Notes under the pieces: generated by a model
What the model was told of the DNA's origin: nothing
Database searches by the model: none
The model's input: only the letters and a program-made list of their open reading frames with translations
In this document: one piece after another, positions 4,266 through 36,752 of the stretch
How positions within the stretch are numbered: position 1 is the first letter of the stretch
How the letters are laid out: each line of letters opens with the position of its first letter
Position numbers and translations under genes: made by a program
Virus record (IMG/VR): IMGVR_UViG_2654587996_000006
DNA: 37,884 nt
Strand: one strand, 5' to 3'
Source of the DNA: a virus
Lineage: Duplodnaviria; Heunggongvirae; Uroviricota; Caudoviricetes

Positions 4266-4747
4266 GACAGCAGCCCTCCCACCGTTTTACTGATATCGCT
4301 TAATGCAGATGTTGCCGTGTCCTGCAGATTATTCAGCTGCGAACTGAGATCACCGAACATATCGGACAGGGATTCATCCACCCGTTTGAGCGACAGGGTG
4401 AACTCAATCCGGCGCGGCATACCGTCGCGGAAAAACTCCGTTTTAGTCTGATTCAGTCCCTCAATCACATACATGCCGTAAATCGTGCCGCTACCTTCAA
4501 TCAGGGGCCATGCTTTCCCCTGTTCTGCCATCTGCTCCAGAGCCAGCAACGACAGCCTGCCGCCTGTTATCTCCGGCATAAGAACACCGGAAAGCGTCAG
4601 CATGTCGTTGTCCGGTCCCAGAAACTGCGTGGACGGACGACGGTTTACCCGACTGTTTGCCGCATGTCGCCAGCTACGTTGATACTGCAGTTCCTGATAC
4701 GGCACGGTGCGCAGCATAAACACGTACAATCCCAGCACCATCATCAT
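4262..4747 (-). CDS. U: tail protein U
   Basis: 161-aa ORF, 4-nt overlap with D, immediately downstream of the tape measure gene; P2 order T-U-D. Confidence 0.8.
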   Translation of the reverse strand: MMMVLGLYVFMLRTVPYQELQYQRSWRHAANSRVNRRPSTQFLGPDNDMLTLSGVLMPEITGGRLSLLALEQMAEQGKAWPLIEGSGTIYGMYVIEGLNQTKTEFFRDGMPRRIEFTLSLKRVDESLSDMFGDLSSQLNNLQDTATSALSDISKTVGGLLS

Positions 4748-7700
4748 GCGTCGTATCCCCCCTGATCGCTGTAGTTACTCCTGGCCTTTGCCTTCAGCCT
4801 GCGTTCACGTTCATCAAGCTGGCGGGCCACCTCCCGCGCAATATCCTGCGCACTTTGTCCTGGCTGCGTCTGAATGATGATCTGCGTCGGTGCCTCAATC
4901 CGTTGAACGGGCGGCACAATGGCTGCACGACTCACCATCGCTTCGCCGCCTTTCGCGGGAAGTGCCAAAGGATGCAACGGTGGAAGCTCTGCAGGCGCGG
5001 CAGCAACGCCCATCATTCCGGCAACAACGGCAGCCAGTGAAGCTGTATTTCTCCGGCTGGTCACGTTTGCCGGGCCGTTAACAATTTCCGGCCCGTTTTC
5101 ACCGACGATGCCAAACTGCCCGCGCGGGATATAGCCGCCGCTGTCATACATCCCCGCAAAGCCATATCCCCATGACGGAAAACCACCCGATGGCATCATC
5201 ACTTTACCGTCAGCATTCACCGTCGCAGGTTGCTGATGCGTCACGCTTTCCGGCAGTTTCGCCTTTGCAGCCTCTTTACTGACAATGCCGAGTTTATCCA
5301 GCAACCAGGAAACACCGGATTTCAGGGAGTCCAGCGGATGCATAACCATATTCAGACCTTCCGCCAGTGCCTCCCCGAATCGTCGTCCCATTGCCGCTGC
5401 GCTCTGCAGTTCGGCAGAGGTCGACTTAACGGGCGTCAGCAGATCAGTAAACCAGCCCCACAGCGCCTGCACTTTGTCGCCAATCCACTGGAACACGGGC
5501 TTAAGCGGTTCGAACGCTGCACTAACGGGACCTGCCGCCGCTTTGAATCCTTCCACCACGCCACCGAGAAATGCGGTGATGGGTTGCCAGTATTTCCAGA
5601 CAACCAGCGCCACACCCGTCAGTGCAGTAACCACAAGACCTATCGGACTGAGCAGAGCACCTAACAGACCAGATACGGCATACAGAGCAACGCGCAGCAT
5701 CGTCAGCGGACCGGATGCCAGCACTCGTAGCACCGCGCCTGCGGCAGCCAGTCCACCGCGCAGTACCGCCAGAGGATTCATAAACATCACAGCAACAGCA
5801 CGTAAAGCGGATAATCCAGACCGCAATAGTGCAACCGGCGCACCTGCTACAGTTTTCAGGACATTTCCCGTCAGTGATGCCGTACGGCGCAAAGACGACA
5901 ACGGCGCAGTAAGTAAACCCGCTGCGTTACCCGATGAAGCAAGCCCGCGTCGCAGCACTGCCAGTGGAGCGCCAGCCAGCCAGAACAACGCGCTGCTGGT
6001 TCGTGTTACTGCTGCCGTAACGGAAGGTAACGTTTTGATGCCCAGCACAGAGAATCCCAGACGGATGACTGCCAGCGGCCCCAGCACTGCAGCCAGCGCC
6101 ACAGCCAAGGTGCCGAGGCCTACGGTAACCGCAGCCACAATAGCGGCTACTTTCATCAGTGTGCCCGTCAGTTCCGGGTTAGCTTCCACCCAGCGACGCA
6201 ACGCTCCCGTAACGCTTTTCACCATGTACAGAATATCCATCAGCGGCTGGCGCAACGTTTCGCCCAGGCTGCTGAAGGTATTCTGCGCTCCGGTTTTAAC
6301 CAGCAACCACTGAGCAGAAAGTGAGTCCTTGTTGATGTCGGATTCTTTCTGCATGGAACCGAGCGCATCATTGCCCGCTGTCAGTTTTAGCTGGCGCTGT
6401 AGTTCCGGCAGGTTGTTTGCCAGTTTCGCCGCGTCATCGCCAAACTCTTTACCAAACAACATGGTCATGGCAGACAGACGCTTGTCCTGCGGCAGTGCGT
6501 TCACCTTCTCCAGTACACGCTGGATAGTTCCCATCGCATCCTTCGTCATCTGCTTTTCAATCACTTCAGGATTGAGTTTCAGCAGATTCATCCCTTCAAA
6601 GAAACTCTTGCTTTGCATGGTGGCAATGGACAATTCACGCACCATCGCGTTTGCTGCACTGGCTGCAACCTCCGGCGCAGCGCCCAGTGTCAGAAAGGTG
6701 GAACCCAGTGCCGCCGCTTTACGATAATCCAGACGGTCAGCCACACCGCCCAGACGTTGCATCACATCAATGATGTCCGCCCCTTTCGACATGGCGTTAT
6801 CATCCAGATAGTTCAGCGCATCGCCGAGCTGTTCAATATTGCGAGTAGGTATTTTGTAGAGCTGGGCGATTTTCCCCAGACTTTCTGACAGTTCATCCGC
6901 TGGCAGCTCAAAGGCTGTTGCCGCCTTTGCTGCCGTACTGGCGAAGGCCAGCAGGTCACGTTTCTGGTCTTCCCAGCTGTCGTCAGGGTTTGCGACGTTC
7001 ATGCGCGCACCACCTTCAACCAGTGCAGCGAAGTCCACCGCCCCGTTTTCCATCGGCAACTGTTCGCTGGCAGCCTTGATGGCATCCTGCATTTCATAAA
7101 AACGTGCAGTACGGTTTCCATTATCGTCACGCAGACCATTGACCTGCTTTGCCACACCTTTCATGGCATCTTCCATGCTGGTATAGCTTTTTACTGCCGC
7201 CATCACTGGCGTCCCCATTGCCAGCCCTGCAGCCGTGGTAGTGGCTCCGGCTCCTGCAATACGATCGCGCACCTCCAGCGAACGGGCATAACTGGCACGC
7301 GCCGCATTCATCCTGCGCTGAGCTTCACCCAGTCGCTTCAGCCGCGCCTCCTGTTTCGACAATTCCTGGTTATAACGTGATGTTTCACGGGCTAAACGGG
7401 CAGTTGCTCCCGCATCATCTTTCGCAGAAATTCCCGCCCGGTACAGTTCTGCACGCACAAGCGCCGTTTGCTTCTGCAAATATTTTTGCTGTTCTTCCAG
7501 GCGTTGGACTGCCAGCGTTTGCCGACCTAAAGCCACAAGGTGCCGTTGTGATGGTTGTTCCATCGCCTCCAGCTCAGAGCTAAGCAAATTAGCCTTCTGT
7601 CTGGCATAGTTCAGCCTGTCGCCTAACTTCTTGTTATCAGCCTGCAGCTTGCGAAATTTTTCCAGGCTATTACCCGCCTGATTGAGTTGCTTTAATGCGT

Positions 7701-32150: not shown

Positions 32151-32492
32151 TTAATTCGGCATGGTTAGCCGTCTGGGAAATAAGCTCACCACTGCACGAA
32201 AATGATTCATTGCTTTAATCAGCTCCCGCTTTTCGTCAGTGGTCAGCTCATTAATGCTGATGCTATGACGTTCAGCTGGAATTTTTGCCATAAAGAATAT
32301 GGCAGCCAGTGCCCGTTTATTTTGTTCATTATTGATATCCCGTGGATCACGCATATCTTTAATAAACCGCTCAAGCTCTGACTCAATATTCAGGCCAAAA
32401 ACTTTCGCTCTTAATTCCGCAATGTGATTAAGTCCATTCAGGCGTTCACCGGGGCTTAATGGAACAGTCGCCGCAGCGCCATTAATTGCCAT
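32151..32492 (-). CDS. hypothetical early protein
   Basis: 113-aa ORF; a possible GGGGA RBS lies upstream. Confidence 0.5.
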   Translation of the reverse strand: MAINGAAATVPLSPGERLNGLNHIAELRAKVFGLNIESELERFIKDMRDPRDINNEQNKRALAAIFFMAKIPAERHSISINELTTDEKRELIKAMNHFRAVVSLFPRRLTMPN

Positions 32493-32514
32493 AATTCATA
32501 TCCCCAAAACGCAA

Positions 32515-32739
32515 CTATCGTTCTTTGTTCTTACGGTAACGCTCAAGGGGAGATACATTTTTTCGTACCGTCTCTTTAACCTGCTCTCCCCGTAAAAACG
32601 TCCCATCCTTTAGTGTGAAAAAGTAACTGCCATCGCCCGACAACGACGGATAACAACAGAGCAAATCATCTTCAGGTACTGAATAACTACCCCCTCTGTA
32701 ACGAAACTGATAAACCACTTCACTTTCTGCCGCATACAT
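32515..32739 (-). CDS. hypothetical early protein
   Basis: 74-aa ORF with a good RBS (GGAGAAA); the overlapping ORF 32610-32852 lacks an RBS. Confidence 0.45.
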   Translation of the reverse strand: MYAAESEVVYQFRYRGGSYSVPEDDLLCCYPSLSGDGSYFFTLKDGTFLRGEQVKETVRKNVSPLERYRKNKER

Positions 32740-32829
32740 TTGGACTTTCTCCGTTTCCTCGTGGTCACTTCAGACAGCAATTCATCTTGTGAATAACATG
32801 GATGCCAGCGTTTACCATCCTCACCCATG

Positions 32830-32889
32830 ATCCAGCCGTGACCGTAGTGCATTGCCGGGCTTTGTTTTACCAGCAGCGATGCAAATGAT
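32830..32889. repeat. 60-bp direct repeat, copy 1
   Basis: 59 of 60 nt identical to 33633-33692 (atccagccgtgaccgtagtgcattgccgg[g/a]ctttgttttaccagcagcgatgcaaatgat). Confidence 0.85.
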
Positions 32890-32979
32890 TGTGCCGGGAA
32901 TTTTTCTACACGCCCGGCGCGTGCCTCAGTGGTAGACTATTTGTGCTAACAATCATCTACCCCTCAAAGGAGAAAACTG

Positions 32980-33060
32980 ATGTCAGAAACAGACAACTTT
33001 CATGTACTCCCTCGCCCGGCTCCAGCACCTCAGCCTGAACCGGGGCAAGAGAAGAAATAG
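32980..33060 (+). CDS. 26-aa Pro-rich leader peptide (MSETDNFHVLPRPAPAPQPEPGQEKK)
   Basis: Strong RBS AAAGGAG 7 nt before the ATG; stops 9 nt before the next ORF. Confidence 0.4.
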   Translation: MSETDNFHVLPRPAPAPQPEPGQEKK

Positions 33061-33069
33061 GAATCCGGC

Positions 33070-33528
33070 ATGACTAAACAAAGCTCCGAATACTTCCAAT
33101 TACACTACTGTTATTACCTTGAACTAATGACAGCAACGTTCCATGGTCGAGCTGATAAATTAATGACAGCAATCCAACTTATAAGCGGAACAGCTGTATT
33201 TGCTAATACAGGTCTGGAATGGTTGTTCGCTTTTCCTGTTGTTGTAATCGCAACAATCCAACTTGTATGGCAACCAGCTATTATTGCGGAACGAGCAAGC
33301 GTACAAAGCCGACAATATGGTGAGTTGCTTTACGCCGAGGATGAATTGTCTCCACAGTTCATTGCACAAAAATTGAAAGCTTTGCATCACTCTGACTCCA
33401 CAACATTCGGATCTTTGTTAAACCCTGCCTACAAAAGAGCTGCTATTGCCTGTGGTCGGGTTGACGATGTAAACCTCAGCTTCCAAGAAAAACTTTTCGC
33501 TTGGTTCGCAGGTTGTTTGCCACGTTAA
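33070..33528 (+). CDS. small predicted 2-TM membrane protein (cassette gene, antisense to the early operon)
   Basis: 152 aa with two hydrophobic helices (LMTAIQLISGTAVF, LFAFPVVVIATIQLVW); the only plus-strand ORF in this minus-strand operon; bracketed by the 60-bp direct repeats. Confidence 0.5.
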   Translation: MTKQSSEYFQLHYCYYLELMTATFHGRADKLMTAIQLISGTAVFANTGLEWLFAFPVVVIATIQLVWQPAIIAERASVQSRQYGELLYAEDELSPQFIAQKLKALHHSDSTTFGSLLNPAYKRAAIACGRVDDVNLSFQEKLFAWFAGCLPR

Positions 33529-33709
33529 CCATAAATCTTTGTAGGAATCGCTTTTTATTTCTTCCCCGGTAAGCCTGTTGCCGGGGTTGTAATTCAAAAC
33601 TTGGATGCCACTTTTTCCCACAAGGTAAATAAATCCAGCCGTGACCGTAGTGCATTGCCGGACTTTGTTTTACCAGCAGCGATGCAAATGATGGTTCTTT
33701 CGTCAGCAT
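33476..33709 (-). CDS. small basic protein immediately downstream of cII
   Basis: 77 aa from MLTKEP with RBS GAGGTG; its coding sequence contains repeat copy 2. Confidence 0.4.
   Translation of the reverse strand: MLTKEPSFASLLVKQSPAMHYGHGWIYLPCGKKWHPSFELQPRQQAYRGRNKKRFLQRFMVNVANNLRTKRKVFLGS
33633..33692. repeat. 60-bp direct repeat, copy 2
   Basis: See copy 1; the copies are 803 bp apart. Confidence 0.85.
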
Positions 33710-33716
33710 AAGCACC

Positions 33717-34226
33717 TCACAGCAAACCGAATGAAGCACCGAGGCCAGTCACGGTATCAACTGCACTCGCCATCGCAGGATTAGCCTGTAAACGGGCCTG
33801 CAATGAAACAGCAGCCAGCGCCATCAGTCGTGTTACAGAGTTAATGCTGCTGATAGCATCACGACGACCTGCACTGGTTTTTACATCGCCAGATACCGCA
33901 CCTGCAGCAACACGTCCGATCTCTGCGGTTGCACTCATGACGTAATGTGGCAGTTTCTCTTTTGCTACCTCATTAATCGGTACACATGGCAGACAGTGAA
34001 TCTGAGCCAGAAAGCCATCTACCAGCGTCGAATCTTCAGTCAGATCGGTAAGCAGCCAAATTTCTGGTGCGGTTAATAAATGAGGTTGAGCAGGGTTCAA
34101 CTTGTTTCGCAGAATCTGCACATTCATTCCTGCACGTCCTGCCAGCTGCACCAGGTTGTGGCGCAGTGCGAATGCACGACAGGCTTCATCAAAATGTGGA
34201 TGTTTGGAAACTTGGTAATCAAACAT
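33717..34226 (-). CDS. cII: 186-type CII lysogeny-establishment transcription activator
   Basis: ORF 33717-34235 trimmed to [11 protein letters not shown]; about 169 aa; recognised as close to coliphage 186 CII; HTH around [13 protein letters not shown]. Confidence 0.7.
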
Positions 34227-34290
34227 GGTTTTCAATTCCGAACTTATCGCAAAATCGAACTCAGCGTCTTATTGCGAAAATAGACGTCTA

Positions 34291-34494
34291 TTAAGCAGAC
34301 AAAGCATCAACAGTCAGAGCAGCCAGGTTAATCATTACCTTTTCACGTTTTTTGTCTTTACGAAGACGATGACGAGGTAGTCGGCCATCAGCCAACATGT
34401 CGTTAATCGTATCAATAGAAAGGCCAGTCAGTTCGCTATAACGTTCGATTGTGACATGTGGTGTATTCAGAGTAATTGAAATGTTAGGTGTCAT
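34291..34494 (-). CDS. apl: Apl/Cox-like excisionase and lytic-promoter regulator
   Basis: 67-aa HTH protein ([29 protein letters not shown]), first gene of the early operon, facing cI. Confidence 0.6.
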
Positions 34495-34552: not shown

Positions 34553-35209
34553 GTGAAGGCTCCAAAAGAAGACTTCTGGTTCAACTTTAAGATCGCTTTT
34601 GGAATCTGTCAACGAATTTTGGATTTCTTTGGAGGATTTGTGGATTTCAATAGCGGCGGTAAGAAAGCCATAGAACGTTTGGTTGAAGCATACGGGTTCG
34701 GTACCCGTCAGGCTCTCTGTGATCATTTAGGTGTTTCTAAGAGCACCATGGCAACGCGTTATATGCGTGATATTTTTCCGGCAGATTGGGTAATCCAGTG
34801 CGCCCTTGAAACGGGTACCTCGCTTAATTGGCTAACAACAGGGCATGGTTCAAAGCAAGCATCAGCAAATACAAATACTATAGAAGTAGTAAAATATTTA
34901 TTGTCTGATGGAGCATTGCAGGAAGACGGTTTTTATATTTTTGATAAGGGATTTCTACCCTCTACGTTTAAAAAACCTTTTGTCATCACAGATAACAATT
35001 CTGAATTTATTTGTGATAAAGAATTTGATGATATACGTGATGGTAAATGGGTAATAAGTATTGATGGCGAAATAACAATCCGCGACATCACTCGTTTACC
35101 CGGTGGAAGAATTTTCGTTGAAGGTGGAAACAGAGCCTTCGAGTGCAAGATAGAAGATGTTGAAATAATTGGAAAAATTATAAGCTTAACAGTTAAGTAT
35201 GTTAGATAA
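34553..35209 (+). CDS. cI: CI immunity repressor (186 type)
   Basis: N-terminal HTH region (RLVEAYGF...ALETGTSLNWLTTGHG); the real start may be the in-frame GTG at 34640 (about 189 aa, preceded by GGAGG), which would leave a longer apl-cI switch region. Confidence 0.7.
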   Translation: MKAPKEDFWFNFKIAFGICQRILDFFGGFVDFNSGGKKAIERLVEAYGFGTRQALCDHLGVSKSTMATRYMRDIFPADWVIQCALETGTSLNWLTTGHGSKQASANTNTIEVVKYLLSDGALQEDGFYIFDKGFLPSTFKKPFVITDNNSEFICDKEFDDIRDGKWVISIDGEITIRDITRLPGGRIFVEGGNRAFECKIEDVEIIGKIISLTVKYVR

Positions 35210-35224
35210 TACCTGGAGGAAACT

Positions 35225-35407
35225 ATGCTTGGTAAGTTTTTTTTTGTGGTTTTATCATGCTCTTTGTTATTAAACCCACTAACTACCTATGCTAAAAATT
35301 ATCCTTGTTCTGGGAAAAAGGGAGGTGTCTCTCACTGTACCTCTGATGGAAAATTTGTTTGCAATGATGGAACCATCAGTAAATCCAAAAAAACATGCAT
35401 CAAATAA
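35225..35407 (+). CDS. small secreted Cys-rich protein (60 aa)
   Basis: Signal peptide [23 protein letters not shown] followed by a 37-residue mature part with 5 Cys; AT-rich; between cI and int. Confidence 0.5.
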
Positions 35408-35420
35408 TAAGGAAATATGA

Positions 35421-36752
35421 ATGAGCACAGATATAACTTTCGATATACGTGATGAATATAAAAGAAAAGCCATTGCAGAAAAAATAATAAGTTTGCTAGA
35501 GTCTAATATTCCTGTTTCACCTATGGTCATAGATGGGGACTGGGGGACTGGAAAAACAGAGTTTTCAAAAAAGTTAGCATCCTTAATTGAAATAAACTCG
35601 ACCAATCATAAAGTAGTTTATATAGATGCTTTTACTGAAGATCACAACGATGCTCCCATACTTACAATAATGGCCGCAATTGCAGCTCTATATAATAGCG
35701 ATGAAAAAAAGGAATTAATATCTAAGGCATTGCCAGCCCTCAGATTCGGACTTAAGACTGTACTCAAAGCTGGTGCTGGTTGGGTATTAAAACAAAATGC
35801 GGATGAAATTAATGAGGAATTTGAAGAGGTTATCAAAGACGCTGCAAATTCAGCTATCGATGGAACCATCGAGGCTCTGTTAGAAGATCATATCGAGGCA
35901 CAAAAGAACGTTCTTGCTCTAAAAGAAGTACTAACCAAATTAGCTGGAGAAAGTAAACTAACAATAATTATAGATGAGTTAGACAGATGTAAGCCTAGTT
36001 TTGCCATTTCTATTATTGAAAATATAAAACATGTTTTTGATATAAAAAACATTAACTTTTTATTAATTGCAAACACAACTCAACTAAAAGCATCCATAAA
36101 TCATATCTATGGCTCTTCTGTAGACTCCAACCGTTATCTTGACAAATTTATAAAATTTACATACAGCCTTCCTGTTACCTTTAAGGAAGATAATTATAAT
36201 GACACTTTAACTTCCAAAAATCATTGGATGATGCTATGTGAGCAATCTGAAAGGCTGACCGCTGCAGTAGAAGCCAGCGAAGATATTTTCTTACAGTTCA
36301 TTGAAAGTAGAAAATTATCATTACGTGAGGTTGAAACACTTGCTAGATATGTTGAAATATACCAACTACTATCAGGCGACAAAATTAGCAACAAATATAT
36401 TTATGGATATTGTTATTACAGGACTCTAGCGATAATAATCTACACTTTTAACCGAGAGTTAGCTCTCAACTTTCTTGAAGATAAAGTTGATGCTCAATCA
36501 ATCATGAAATTGTTTGGTTTATCTAAATTTTCATATCAAACAAGTGAATATAATGTAGATAATTATGAATATGCTATATTTGGAATAGTTTACAAATACT
36601 TATCTGAAAACTCATCTCTTTTACCTGCTGAGGAAAATATAAAAAGACAATGGGCAGAAATGAGTGAATACCATTTTTTAAAAGGTGGTGGCGGTATTGG
36701 TGAACCAACAAATATTGTGAAAGATGCTTTAAAAGTTTTTTTACTTCAGTGA
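35421..36752 (+). CDS. KAP-family P-loop NTPase, second copy (cargo gene, candidate anti-phage factor)
   Basis: 443 aa; Walker A IDGDWGTGKTEF matches the KAP signature; Walker B LTIIIDELDRCKP; AT-rich; lies between cI and int. Confidence 0.8.
   Translation: MSTDITFDIRDEYKRKAIAEKIISLLESNIPVSPMVIDGDWGTGKTEFSKKLASLIEINSTNHKVVYIDAFTEDHNDAPILTIMAAIAALYNSDEKKELISKALPALRFGLKTVLKAGAGWVLKQNADEINEEFEEVIKDAANSAIDGTIEALLEDHIEAQKNVLALKEVLTKLAGESKLTIIIDELDRCKPSFAISIIENIKHVFDIKNINFLLIANTTQLKASINHIYGSSVDSNRYLDKFIKFTYSLPVTFKEDNYNDTLTSKNHWMMLCEQSERLTAAVEASEDIFLQFIESRKLSLREVETLARYVEIYQLLSGDKISNKYIYGYCYYRTLAIIIYTFNRELALNFLEDKVDAQSIMKLFGLSKFSYQTSEYNVDNYEYAIFGIVYKYLSENSSLLPAEENIKRQWAEMSEYHFLKGGGGIGEPTNIVKDALKVFLLQ

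Follow-up and report, generated by a model that had tools for sequence, protein, structure and literature searches.

A fil-linked prophage cassette pairs a proline-rich micropeptide gene with the gene for a predicted SLATT-like membrane protein

Introduction

Why does a temperate phage carry a pair of genes that opposes its own early lytic operon, and what does the near-perfect direct repeat on either side of that pair record? Both questions are raised by IMG/VR record IMGVR_UViG_2654587996_000006, a 37,884-nucleotide (nt) stretch of caudoviral DNA that was analysed at its full length and is referred to below as the window. The DNA is a 186/Fels-2-like (Peduoviridae) Escherichia coli prophage with the gene order of coliphage 186 and Salmonella phage Fels-2; positions 32400-34300 match the E. 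coli CI5 chromosome at 100% identity and about 30 further E. coli genomes, including NC101, at 99.9%. The gene pair is sited in the early lytic (pR) operon, with cII on one side and the replication genes on the other. It belongs to a cassette of about 700 bp that occupies the opposite strand to the operon between cII and the DUF5347 gene, and that consists of a leader, a micropeptide open reading frame (ORF), a membrane-protein gene and a terminator-like hairpin.

A sequence-only reading of the window had described the pair as an insertion bounded by the repeats, with a leader peptide that might regulate a toxin, an abortive-infection effector or a moron. Here we show that both ORFs are selected genes, that the cassette is present or absent among close relatives, and that the repeat derives from two alleles of the phage gene fil and does not define the mobile unit. 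The explanation that best joins these features, and towards which we lean slightly, is a fil-recombinant moron that encodes a SLATT-like protein together with a micropeptide and that would be expressed from the prophage to abort infection.

Results and Discussion

The coordinates and spacing of the two ORFs agree with the sequence-only reading. The 26-codon Pro-rich micropeptide gene (MSETDNFHVLPRPAPAPQPEPGQEKK; 32980-33060, plus strand) has a strong ribosome-binding site, with an AAGGAG Shine-Dalgarno sequence 8 nt upstream of its ATG, and is followed after 9 nt by the gene for a 152-residue protein (33070-33528, plus strand). Comparison of the window, Fels-2, Enterobacter (L011) and Yersinia (L012) versions gave a ratio of nonsynonymous to synonymous substitution rates (dN/dS) of 0.06-0.10 for the micropeptide frame and above 1.5 for the two other frames of the same region, while the larger gene gave 0.04-0.07. 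Both ORFs are therefore real genes under strong purifying selection (dN/dS 0.04-0.10). In the identical CI5 region, RefSeq annotates the larger gene as a hypothetical protein and as the sole plus-strand coding sequence between the replication genes and cI, which supports the description of the pair as alone on the plus strand of a minus-strand operon and, with it, of a cassette transcribed antisense to the early lytic genes. The micropeptide is not annotated there, nearly all other annotations omit it as well, and its exact sequence was not found in a collection of 15 billion proteins; the exact 152-residue sequence occurs in at least 1,000 contigs. Fels-2 and Yersinia phage vB_YenM_42.18 carry annotated long ORFs opposite the SLATT-like gene (STM2733.1, L002 2595-2999; gp008, L004 2812-3477), and the real pair is omitted. 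As the selection analysis and the conservation of the family favour the plus-strand genes, these two calls are probably spurious wrong-strand ORFs.

Upstream sequence could be used in 12 lineages, namely the window/Fels-2 group, Yersinia L012, Yersinia phage 42.18, Providencia phage PSTNGR2lys, L013, the Rac-like loci L014-L032, L016, L098, L099, L100, L101 and the Mu-like L018. Eleven of the 12 have a Pro-rich ORF of 26-48 codons that ends anywhere from 22 nt before the start of the large gene to a 1-nt overlap with it. The encoded peptides share a polar N-terminus, often containing D-(H/N/F)-(F/H), which is followed by a basic residue, a P-x-P-x-P tract and a Lys/Gln-rich end (for example MADTEDFHVLHRPAPKPQPEPNEDKK, MLINQFGDSDRPMPDGQVPYRPAPSPRPPSKP and MADKKDSTSGSHRAVVHDHKTVFERTPAPTPAPAPAPTKKS); judged by eye, none of these sequences has a hydrophobic N-terminal stretch of the signal-peptide kind. 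The large proteins of these lineages are 25-41% identical to the window protein, except at the Mu-like locus L018. These comparisons point to the micropeptide as a conserved protein-coding partner of the membrane protein. In L016, one frame of the region past the stop codon of the SLATT-like gene (2181-2310) is again Pro-rich, with CCG, CCT and CCA codons (..RPPSPKPK.., ..PRPKPVPAP..).

The role of regulatory leader peptide that had been suggested for the small ORF is not supported by these data, since its dN/dS and its presence in 11 of the 12 lineages mark a conserved coding partner, and the 9 nt between the ORFs leave no room for an attenuator. Neither alternative RNA structures nor a terminator were found before the large gene: besides the short gap, the leader fold gave z = -1.36 and an Rfam scan of the leader and cassette returned no family, only two chance CRISPR-DR matches. 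An exceptional RNA fold that hides the ribosome-binding site in the window was rejected on the same z value, which is not significant. Read-through fusion of the two ORFs was also rejected; the window has them in frame, but other lineages separate them by 4, 5, 10, 20 or 22 nt, and given this variation the in-frame arrangement is coincidental.

A related possibility is that the small ORF acts purely in cis as an upstream ORF, where ribosomes that slow or terminate set the translation of the membrane protein and the peptide itself is functionless. The stop codon does overlap the Shine-Dalgarno sequence of the next gene, and the two genes stay within the range from a 22-nt gap to a 1-nt overlap throughout the lineages. 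Several variants (L005, L013, L100 and L101) contain PPP or PPPP, which are stall motifs dependent on elongation factor P, and conservation of sequence is also a property of arrest peptides. The window, Fels-2 and Yersinia frederiksenii (L012) variants lack consecutive prolines, however, and conservation extends to non-proline residues (D-N-F-H-V-L), with a dN/dS of about 0.1 over the whole peptide. With no alternative RNA structure between the ORFs and a leader fold at z = -1.4, we consider a purely cis-acting ORF improbable and retain the micropeptide as a coding partner.

The partner encoded downstream is a predicted SLATT-like inner-membrane protein. The two hydrophobic helices noted by the sequence-only reading were recovered both by hydropathy analysis (maximum at about residues 31-68) and in an AlphaFold2 model built from the family alignment (predicted local distance difference test score, pLDDT, 95.4). 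An N-terminal helix is predicted to run into the first transmembrane (TM) segment (TM1, about 31-46); TM2 (about 49-68) comes next, and the C-domain is predicted to be helical and cytoplasmic. In the model, helices span residues 6-45, 50-67, 69-88, 95-106, 114-128 and 138-146, such that the long first helix holds TM1, a turn of about 3 residues leads into TM2 (50-67), and four cytoplasmic helices follow. The predicted topology would leave nearly the whole protein in the cytoplasm and expose a loop of about 3 residues to the periplasm. This is the domain shape of SLATT proteins, which combine a long helix, a two-TM hairpin and cytoplasmic helices in about 130-190 residues. SLATT two-TM proteins are predicted pore-forming effectors in cyclic-oligonucleotide-based anti-phage signalling systems (CBASS) and in reverse transcriptase (RT)-based defence. 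Mobile elements and conflict systems carry genes for SLATT proteins (PMC11381338; bioRxiv 10.64898/2026.04.29.721553).

The sole profile match of the window protein is phrog_6315, which has no assigned function. An exhaustive HMMER search extended the family to 119 clusters at 50% identity, of which almost all are full-length, with about 150-165 residues, and which occur in Enterobacterales prophages of the P2-like, lambdoid and Mu-like types; a scan of genome contigs with the window protein alone gave 6 loci. We ran 102 family members individually against profile libraries. At sub-threshold scores, NCBIfam matches were to SLATT_4 (41 members), SLATT_1 (12), SLATT_fungal (2) and SLATT_5 (1), Pfam matches to SLATT_fungal, SLATT_4, DUF4231 and PycTM, and PADLOC matches to the CBASS '2TM effector' (10 members) and RT-associated SLATT (5 members). 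The SLATT matches align in register across the N-terminal helix and the two TM segments, and unrelated membrane families were matched by only 1-3 members each. In Foldseek searches of BFVD viral models, 8 of the top 19 matches are annotated as SLATT (E 0.17-1.0, probability 0.16-0.98, TM-score 0.24-0.55), and the best match is to an unnamed protein (E 0.02, probability 1.00). We are fairly confident that the 152-residue protein is truly homologous to SLATT, as a divergent stand-alone SLATT-like protein that curated thresholds do not admit as a member.

The resemblance to established SLATT effectors (SLATT_4/PF18186 of type I CBASS; SLATT_5 of DRT10/UG17) thus covers a length of about 150-190 residues, the N-terminal helix, the tight two-TM hairpin and the cytoplasmic helices, along with the consistent profile matches in 41 of 102 relatives and the annotated SLATT proteins among the top folds. 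In contrast to those effectors, the family has no CD-NTase, SLOG, TIR, RT or NAP partner, has the 26-48-residue Pro-rich micropeptide instead, and occurs as a lone moron within temperate phages. No gene for a nucleotide-signalling or nucleic-acid-synthesizing partner (SMODS/CD-NTase, SLOG, TIR or RT) was found next to it in the 12 lineages, where the neighbours are ordinary phage genes and the only conserved neighbour is the micropeptide ORF. The TM-coding segments contain an internal direct repeat (33161-33203 and 33245-33287; 43 nt, 72% identity, spacing 84; ..MTAIQLI.. and ..IATIQLV..). Viral contig L085 appears to have lost exactly 84 bp between these copies, which would remove one TM helix, so that L085 would be a natural knock-out produced by recombination between the internal repeats.

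The limits and distribution of the cassette were determined from 67 related cassette-bearing loci. About 54 of these, including Fels-2, have one fil and no repeat, with the order cII-filS-cassette, a short spacer or one small ORF, and then DUF5347. The duplication is confined to an E. coli clade (L033-37, L085 and L007), and in the remaining six loci, of the Yersinia lineage (L012 and L086-L091), the match is limited to the cassette itself. Homology to other phages always has its left limit at 32883-32894. In L041 it stops on the right at 33532, four bases past the stop codon, and in L040 orf74 and two more small ORFs lie between the cassette and fil while the cassette still adjoins DUF5347. 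These two boundaries define a conserved unit from about 32889 to 33532-33590. The repeats are consequently not the bounds of the inserted unit that they had been taken for: about 54 loci hold the cassette, from about 32889 to 33532 or the terminator-like hairpin, without any repeat. In L040 a small plus-strand ORF (4740-4988; 82 residues, MLSQAEKERIEQLENEV...) lies between orf74 and the cassette, and the cII-DUF5347 interval may accept other antisense cargo.

The expectation that relatives without the insert exist was borne out. Alongside 38 E. coli genomes with the full region, about 1,280 have the flanks only, and empty sites are also found in phages vB_EcoM-813R9 and RE-2010, so that presence and absence of the cassette are real. 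Such presence in some phages with precise absence in close relatives is the behaviour of a moron, and the cassette resembles known phage morons (for example HK97 gp15 and P2 old, tin and fun) in being an extra unit, present or absent among close relatives and oriented against the flanking operon, that ends in a terminator-like hairpin and may have a promoter of its own. It differs in its site, cII-fil-DUF5347 of 186-like phages, which is neither the cos-adjacent nor the cI-int hotspot. A cos-adjacent defence hotspot has been described for P2-like phages, and a cI-int hotspot for a P2-related Vibrionaceae phage (PMC9122126).

If the repeat does not delimit the cassette, what does it record? The window has a single strong direct-repeat family, 32830-32892 and 33633-33695, with 63 nt, 2 mismatches and a start-to-start distance of 803. 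The 60-bp repeat with one differing position reported earlier is the 60-nt version, which has 1 mismatch; a near-perfect 60-nt repeat inside 3.5 kb is far beyond chance. Weaker similarity continues to the left in the same register (32795-32817 and 33598-33620, 78%), so the duplicated homology amounts to about 98 nt. Both copies lie in minus-strand frames that match the Fil profile (PF10893, Phage_186_Fil) at 83.1 and 48.3 bits, above the cut-off of 25, and correspond to nt 15-77 of two alleles of fil, the cell-division-inhibitor gene downstream of cII. The placement of copy 2 inside the small gene just downstream of cII was correct, and that gene is a Fil-family gene (E 1e-23). Copy 1 does head a second, paralogous frame of the same family (E 8e-13), as had been noted, but the frame is 5'-truncated rather than decayed: positions 32400-32892 are 96% identical to 813R9, which has an intact long fil.

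The truncated long allele, here called filL' (32610-32892, minus strand; also phrog_32377, E 2e-52), runs from fil nt 15 to its stop. Copy 1 (32830-32892) begins at nt 15, so filL' has no start codon, and the RefSeq 'Fil family protein' called in it (32610-32852, minus strand) is started at the internal Met19. The right end of copy 1 is an illegitimate junction with the cassette, at a TTGT microhomology (32889-32892). The complete, cassette-linked allele filS (33476-33709, minus strand; 77 residues) is also annotated in RefSeq as a 'Fil family protein' and contains copy 2 (33633-33695). Over nt 15-77, filS is identical to RE-2010 at 63 of 63 positions, to 813R9 at 62 of 63 and to Fels-2 at 55 of 63, while over nt 78-114 it matches Fels-2 at 33 of 37 positions and 813R9 at 18 of 37. 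Segment-wise identities and the Fil alignment thus place a sharp mosaic breakpoint at 33632/33633. Past 'GWI' filS continues in a different sequence that it has in common with Fels-2, and past 'WHP' (about codon 36) the frame runs antisense through the cassette hairpin and the 3' end of the 152-codon gene. Compared with phage 186 Fil, both repeat copies lie in Fil-family frames, with the differences that one lacks the first 14 nt and the start codon and that the other has a replaced C-terminus encoded antisense to the cassette 3' end. The cassette-linked fil alleles also encode 'PRQQA(Y/V/T)RG' antisense to the terminator-like hairpin (within 33476-33632), a motif kept even in the very divergent fil of L041, and the constraint behind it may be on the hairpin and not on Fil.

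In a protein alignment, the first 26 Fil residues (MLTKEPSFASLLVKQSPAMHYGHGWI) are nearly invariant among 186, RE-2010, 813R9, Fels-2 and the window, and the repeat is the most conserved part of two diverged fil alleles. Phage 813R9 (L003) has a single fil of 98 codons, in which one 63-nt stretch (L003 2931-2993) aligns to both window copies; its flanks are colinear with the window at 96% and 94% identity, and the window has 740 extra nt plus the duplicated 63. Fels-2 is colinear with window 32889-34227, has no second fil, and has the TTGT of the left junction in common at its cassette end, as microhomology only. We infer that the repeat is a recombination scar outside the mobile unit, and the simplest history would be one illegitimate crossover at TTGT, in which the left end of the cassette of a Fels-2-type phage became joined to nt 15 of the fil gene in a long-fil phage. 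The repeat itself is ordinary phage mosaicism, that is, illegitimate recombination within a conserved gene start. The earlier idea that recombination had duplicated the 5' region of a small early gene is supported to this extent, with fil as the gene and its truncated and complete alleles flanking the cassette. The 98-residue 'long Fil' may be an over-extended gene call, given that the Fil Pfam domain has 56 residues, that RE-2010 and 186 Fil have 66-75, and that orf74 (32515-32739) overlaps the C-terminal extension (phrog_32377, 32610-32852) by 130 nt in a different frame on the same minus strand.

The same data bear on whether the cassette is a discrete mobile element whose site-specific or transpositional insertion made a 60-bp target duplication. 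The empty-site phage does contain the 63-nt stretch once, and GC-rich hairpins lie at both cassette ends. Against this, about 54 other loci carry the cassette without a duplication, the similarity runs past 63 nt at lower identity as it would between two diverged alleles, and the left junction has only 4 nt of microhomology. The ORF list and repeat search revealed no transposase, integrase or terminal inverted repeat within the segment. Transposition with target-site duplication was rejected, since the repeat is missing from most loci that carry the cassette and consists of fil homology between diverged alleles, and we regard this origin as very improbable.

Several conserved elements surround the genes of the cassette. 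Hairpin 1 at its left edge (GTGCCGGG-N14-CCCGGCGC; 32891-32920, plus strand), where homology to other phages has its left limit at 32888-32894, is conserved across P2-like, lambdoid and Mu-like loci, with a loop of variable length and three independent double compensatory changes in the stem, from GCCGGG/CCCGGC to ACCGGG/CCCGGT, to GCCGAG/CTCGGC and to GCCGGA/TCCGGC. These changes were read from an anchored manual table. The hairpin may act on either strand. Lineage comparison also identified a leader region (32930-32972, plus strand) that includes TGGTAGACT (32930-32938), which resembles an extended -10 element, and the AAGGAG Shine-Dalgarno sequence (32967-32972). The motif TGGTAnnnT at 32930-32938 is conserved and could be an extended -10; it overlaps one strand of a leader stem that pairs just before the Shine-Dalgarno sequence (GGTAGA/TCTACC, 32931-32936 with 32956-32961; a GTGGT/ACCAC register is found in Yersinia and other lineages). 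In the Rac-like group, TGnTAnnnT lies just upstream of hairpin 1 instead and is accompanied by extra hairpins, and one of these could mask the Shine-Dalgarno sequence. The conserved leader structures (window 32891-32961) recur in L002, L004, L012, L014, L018-L032, L091 and L098-L100, and could be a 5' stabilizer, an insulator or a regulatory RNA. Downstream of the membrane-protein gene, the scan matched a terminator-like hairpin (CCCCGG-N11-CCGGGG then TTGTAATTC; 33564-33586, plus strand) that falls within the 3' part of filS, which is read from the opposite strand, and a hairpin or canonical terminator follows the gene in most of the other lineages shown.

The gene pair is alone and opposed to its neighbours in each setting examined, whether the lambdoid early-left or immunity region (L005, L014-16 and L100), a Mu-like prophage or P2-like phages. 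In the window, L005, L014-16 and L100, it runs antisense in the early or immunity region of the temperate phage concerned; lambda sieB is likewise antisense within the pL operon, and in the Rac-like L014 and L015 the pair lies between the recE-side early genes and the repressor, the position of sieB in Rac. The cassette shares with SieB/Esc/sas of P22, lambda and Rac a membrane protein of about 160-190 residues with N-terminal hydrophobic helices, presumed expression from the prophage, an antisense location in an early operon and, in Rac-like prophages, the sieB position. It differs in having no sequence or profile similarity and no evidence of an internal in-frame Esc-like product, and sieB has no upstream micropeptide gene. 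Homology to SieB (PF14163) was rejected after no Pfam match and no BLASTP alignment were obtained and hhalign gave 0.2% against Rac and lambda SieB. The sieB gene of P22 is controlled by the antisense sas RNA (PMC7067206).

A mechanism is proposed in which CI would repress pR in the lysogen while a promoter belonging to the moron would drive its transcription. Translation of the two cistrons would be coupled through the overlap between the stop codon of the micropeptide ORF and the Shine-Dalgarno sequence of the larger gene, and the cytoplasmic micropeptide would restrain the membrane protein or sense for it. A superinfecting phage would upset the balance between the two, and the released SLATT-like protein would permeabilize or depolarize the inner membrane, so that infection aborts. 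When the resident phage turns lytic, convergent pR transcription through the cassette would silence it by interference and antisense RNA, a proposal that resembles the control of P22 sieB by sas. Moron and abortive-infection effector are the best functional readings of the cassette, and the likely, inferred function is that of an abortive-infection or exclusion module expressed by the prophage. A more far-reaching and tentative proposal is that the micropeptide and the orphan SLATT-like protein form a widespread, previously unrecognized two-gene anti-phage system, in which a trans-acting micropeptide would serve as sensor or gatekeeper for a minimal SLATT pore; it might be labile, for instance, or a phage factor might titrate it, or it might report on translation.

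A number of observations weigh against the abortive-infection account and its SLATT component. The window protein has no Pfam, NCBIfam or PADLOC match at E<=1; its relatives score 19-21 bits against SLATT_4, for which the curated cut-off is 55, and no family member exceeds the cut-off of any curated SLATT profile. The BFVD fold matches are weak (E 0.02-1, TM-score 0.4-0.55), and fold searches of the PDB returned generic helical matches only, with no solved SLATT structure found. Known SLATT proteins act with a signalling partner, which the cassette lacks, and the longer family members include no natural fusion of the peptide with the large protein. An automated promoter scan found no canonical sigma-70 site in the cassette leader, so that expression in the lysogen is assumed; the conserved TGnTAnnnT motifs were seen by eye.

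Two further functions would use the same genes differently. As a toxin-antitoxin-like addiction module, the pair would consist of a labile micropeptide antitoxin and a membrane toxin that stabilize the prophage or host lineage and have no anti-phage role. The order of the genes, with the small ORF first, the putative toxin second and the two tightly coupled, would suit such a module, as would purifying selection on both and carriage on mobile elements. Integrated prophages, however, hardly need post-segregational killing, the unit recurs at classical positions of exclusion genes such as the sieB site of Rac-like phages, and the protein resembles defence effectors. Addiction without defence is thus unlikely, and toxin-antitoxin and abortive-infection roles are not mutually exclusive. 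Equally unlikely is a membrane protein that is no suicide effector and instead provides non-abortive superinfection exclusion or serves the lytic cycle, as a DNA-entry blocker or a modulator of lysis or the membrane. Small two-TM prophage proteins can block DNA injection, and small prophage or phage proteins that do so include HK97 gp15, T4 Imm and P22 SieA; the position of the cassette is also that of exclusion genes. Exclusion by P22 SieA is the subject of PMC10883804. Such a role is difficult to reconcile with a predicted topology in which the bulk of the protein stays in the cytoplasm, as does the micropeptide, which has no signal, and a loop of about 3 residues reaches the periplasm, with nearest relatives that are suicide effectors, and with an orientation that opposes lytic transcription. 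An abortive-infection moron remains the reading that we slightly favour.

The genes around the cassette are those of an ordinary 186-like early region. On its left, the DUF5347 early gene (32151-32492, minus strand; Pfam PF17282, E 4e-33; RefSeq) is the neighbour of the cassette in nearly all related phages, and at Fels-2-type loci the two adjoin with a spacer of about 38 nt. In the window, orf74 (32515-32739, minus strand), an early gene without assigned function, is a full-length match to phrog_4312 in PHROG (E 7e-52). It is found in the empty-site phage 813R9 and is absent from Fels-2, and it arrived with the long-fil parental segment. RefSeq annotates genes for a replication endonuclease, a Dam methylase, TraR/DksA and DUF2732 on the minus strand. 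On the right lie cII (33717-34226, minus strand), which encodes the 186-type CP76 regulator and is the upstream gene of the early lytic operon (Pfam PF06892, E 2e-41; RefSeq), a small Apl/Cox-like gene (34291-34494, minus strand; RefSeq) and the CI gene (34640-35209, plus strand; RefSeq), followed by a small ORF, a KAP NTPase gene and the integrase gene. In this cI-int interval, the small ORF (35225-35407, plus strand) encodes 60 residues with a signal-peptide-like N-terminus, and the KAP-family NTPase (35421-36752, plus strand; 443 residues) matches the PADLOC candidate PDC-S20 over its full length (E 2e-171), with weaker matches to PifA and QatA. The interval is of the cI-int hotspot type (PMC9122126), and the prophage thus carries a second likely defence cargo.

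Conclusion

The literature searched contains no mention of the membrane protein, its accessions, STM2734, Q8ZMR9 or phrog_6315 and no description of the module, and no PADLOC v2 system contains the cassette. A transcriptome study of Salmonella prophages leaves Fels-2 out. Prophage morons that carry a two-TM SLATT-like effector are already known as a type, whereas the combination of an orphan SLATT-like protein with a Pro-rich micropeptide is undescribed. If the proposed reading is correct, many Enterobacterales lysogens carry an unannotated module of micropeptide and membrane effector, among them E. coli NC101 and CI5, Salmonella LT2 through Fels-2, and strains of Klebsiella, Enterobacter, Citrobacter, Yersinia and Hafnia. 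The module could then shape phage susceptibility, with relevance to phage therapy and to competition between prophages, and cII-fil-DUF5347 would be a third accessory-gene site beside the known hotspots of P2-like and related phages. The activation of SLATT proteins is unsettled in CBASS and DRT systems, and has been called an open question in work on DRT10 (bioRxiv 10.64898/2026.04.29.721553). A two-component system of 180 residues would allow the restraint and triggering of a SLATT two-TM effector to be studied, and, with the micropeptide as sensor or gatekeeper, would be the simplest available model of how such effectors are gated.

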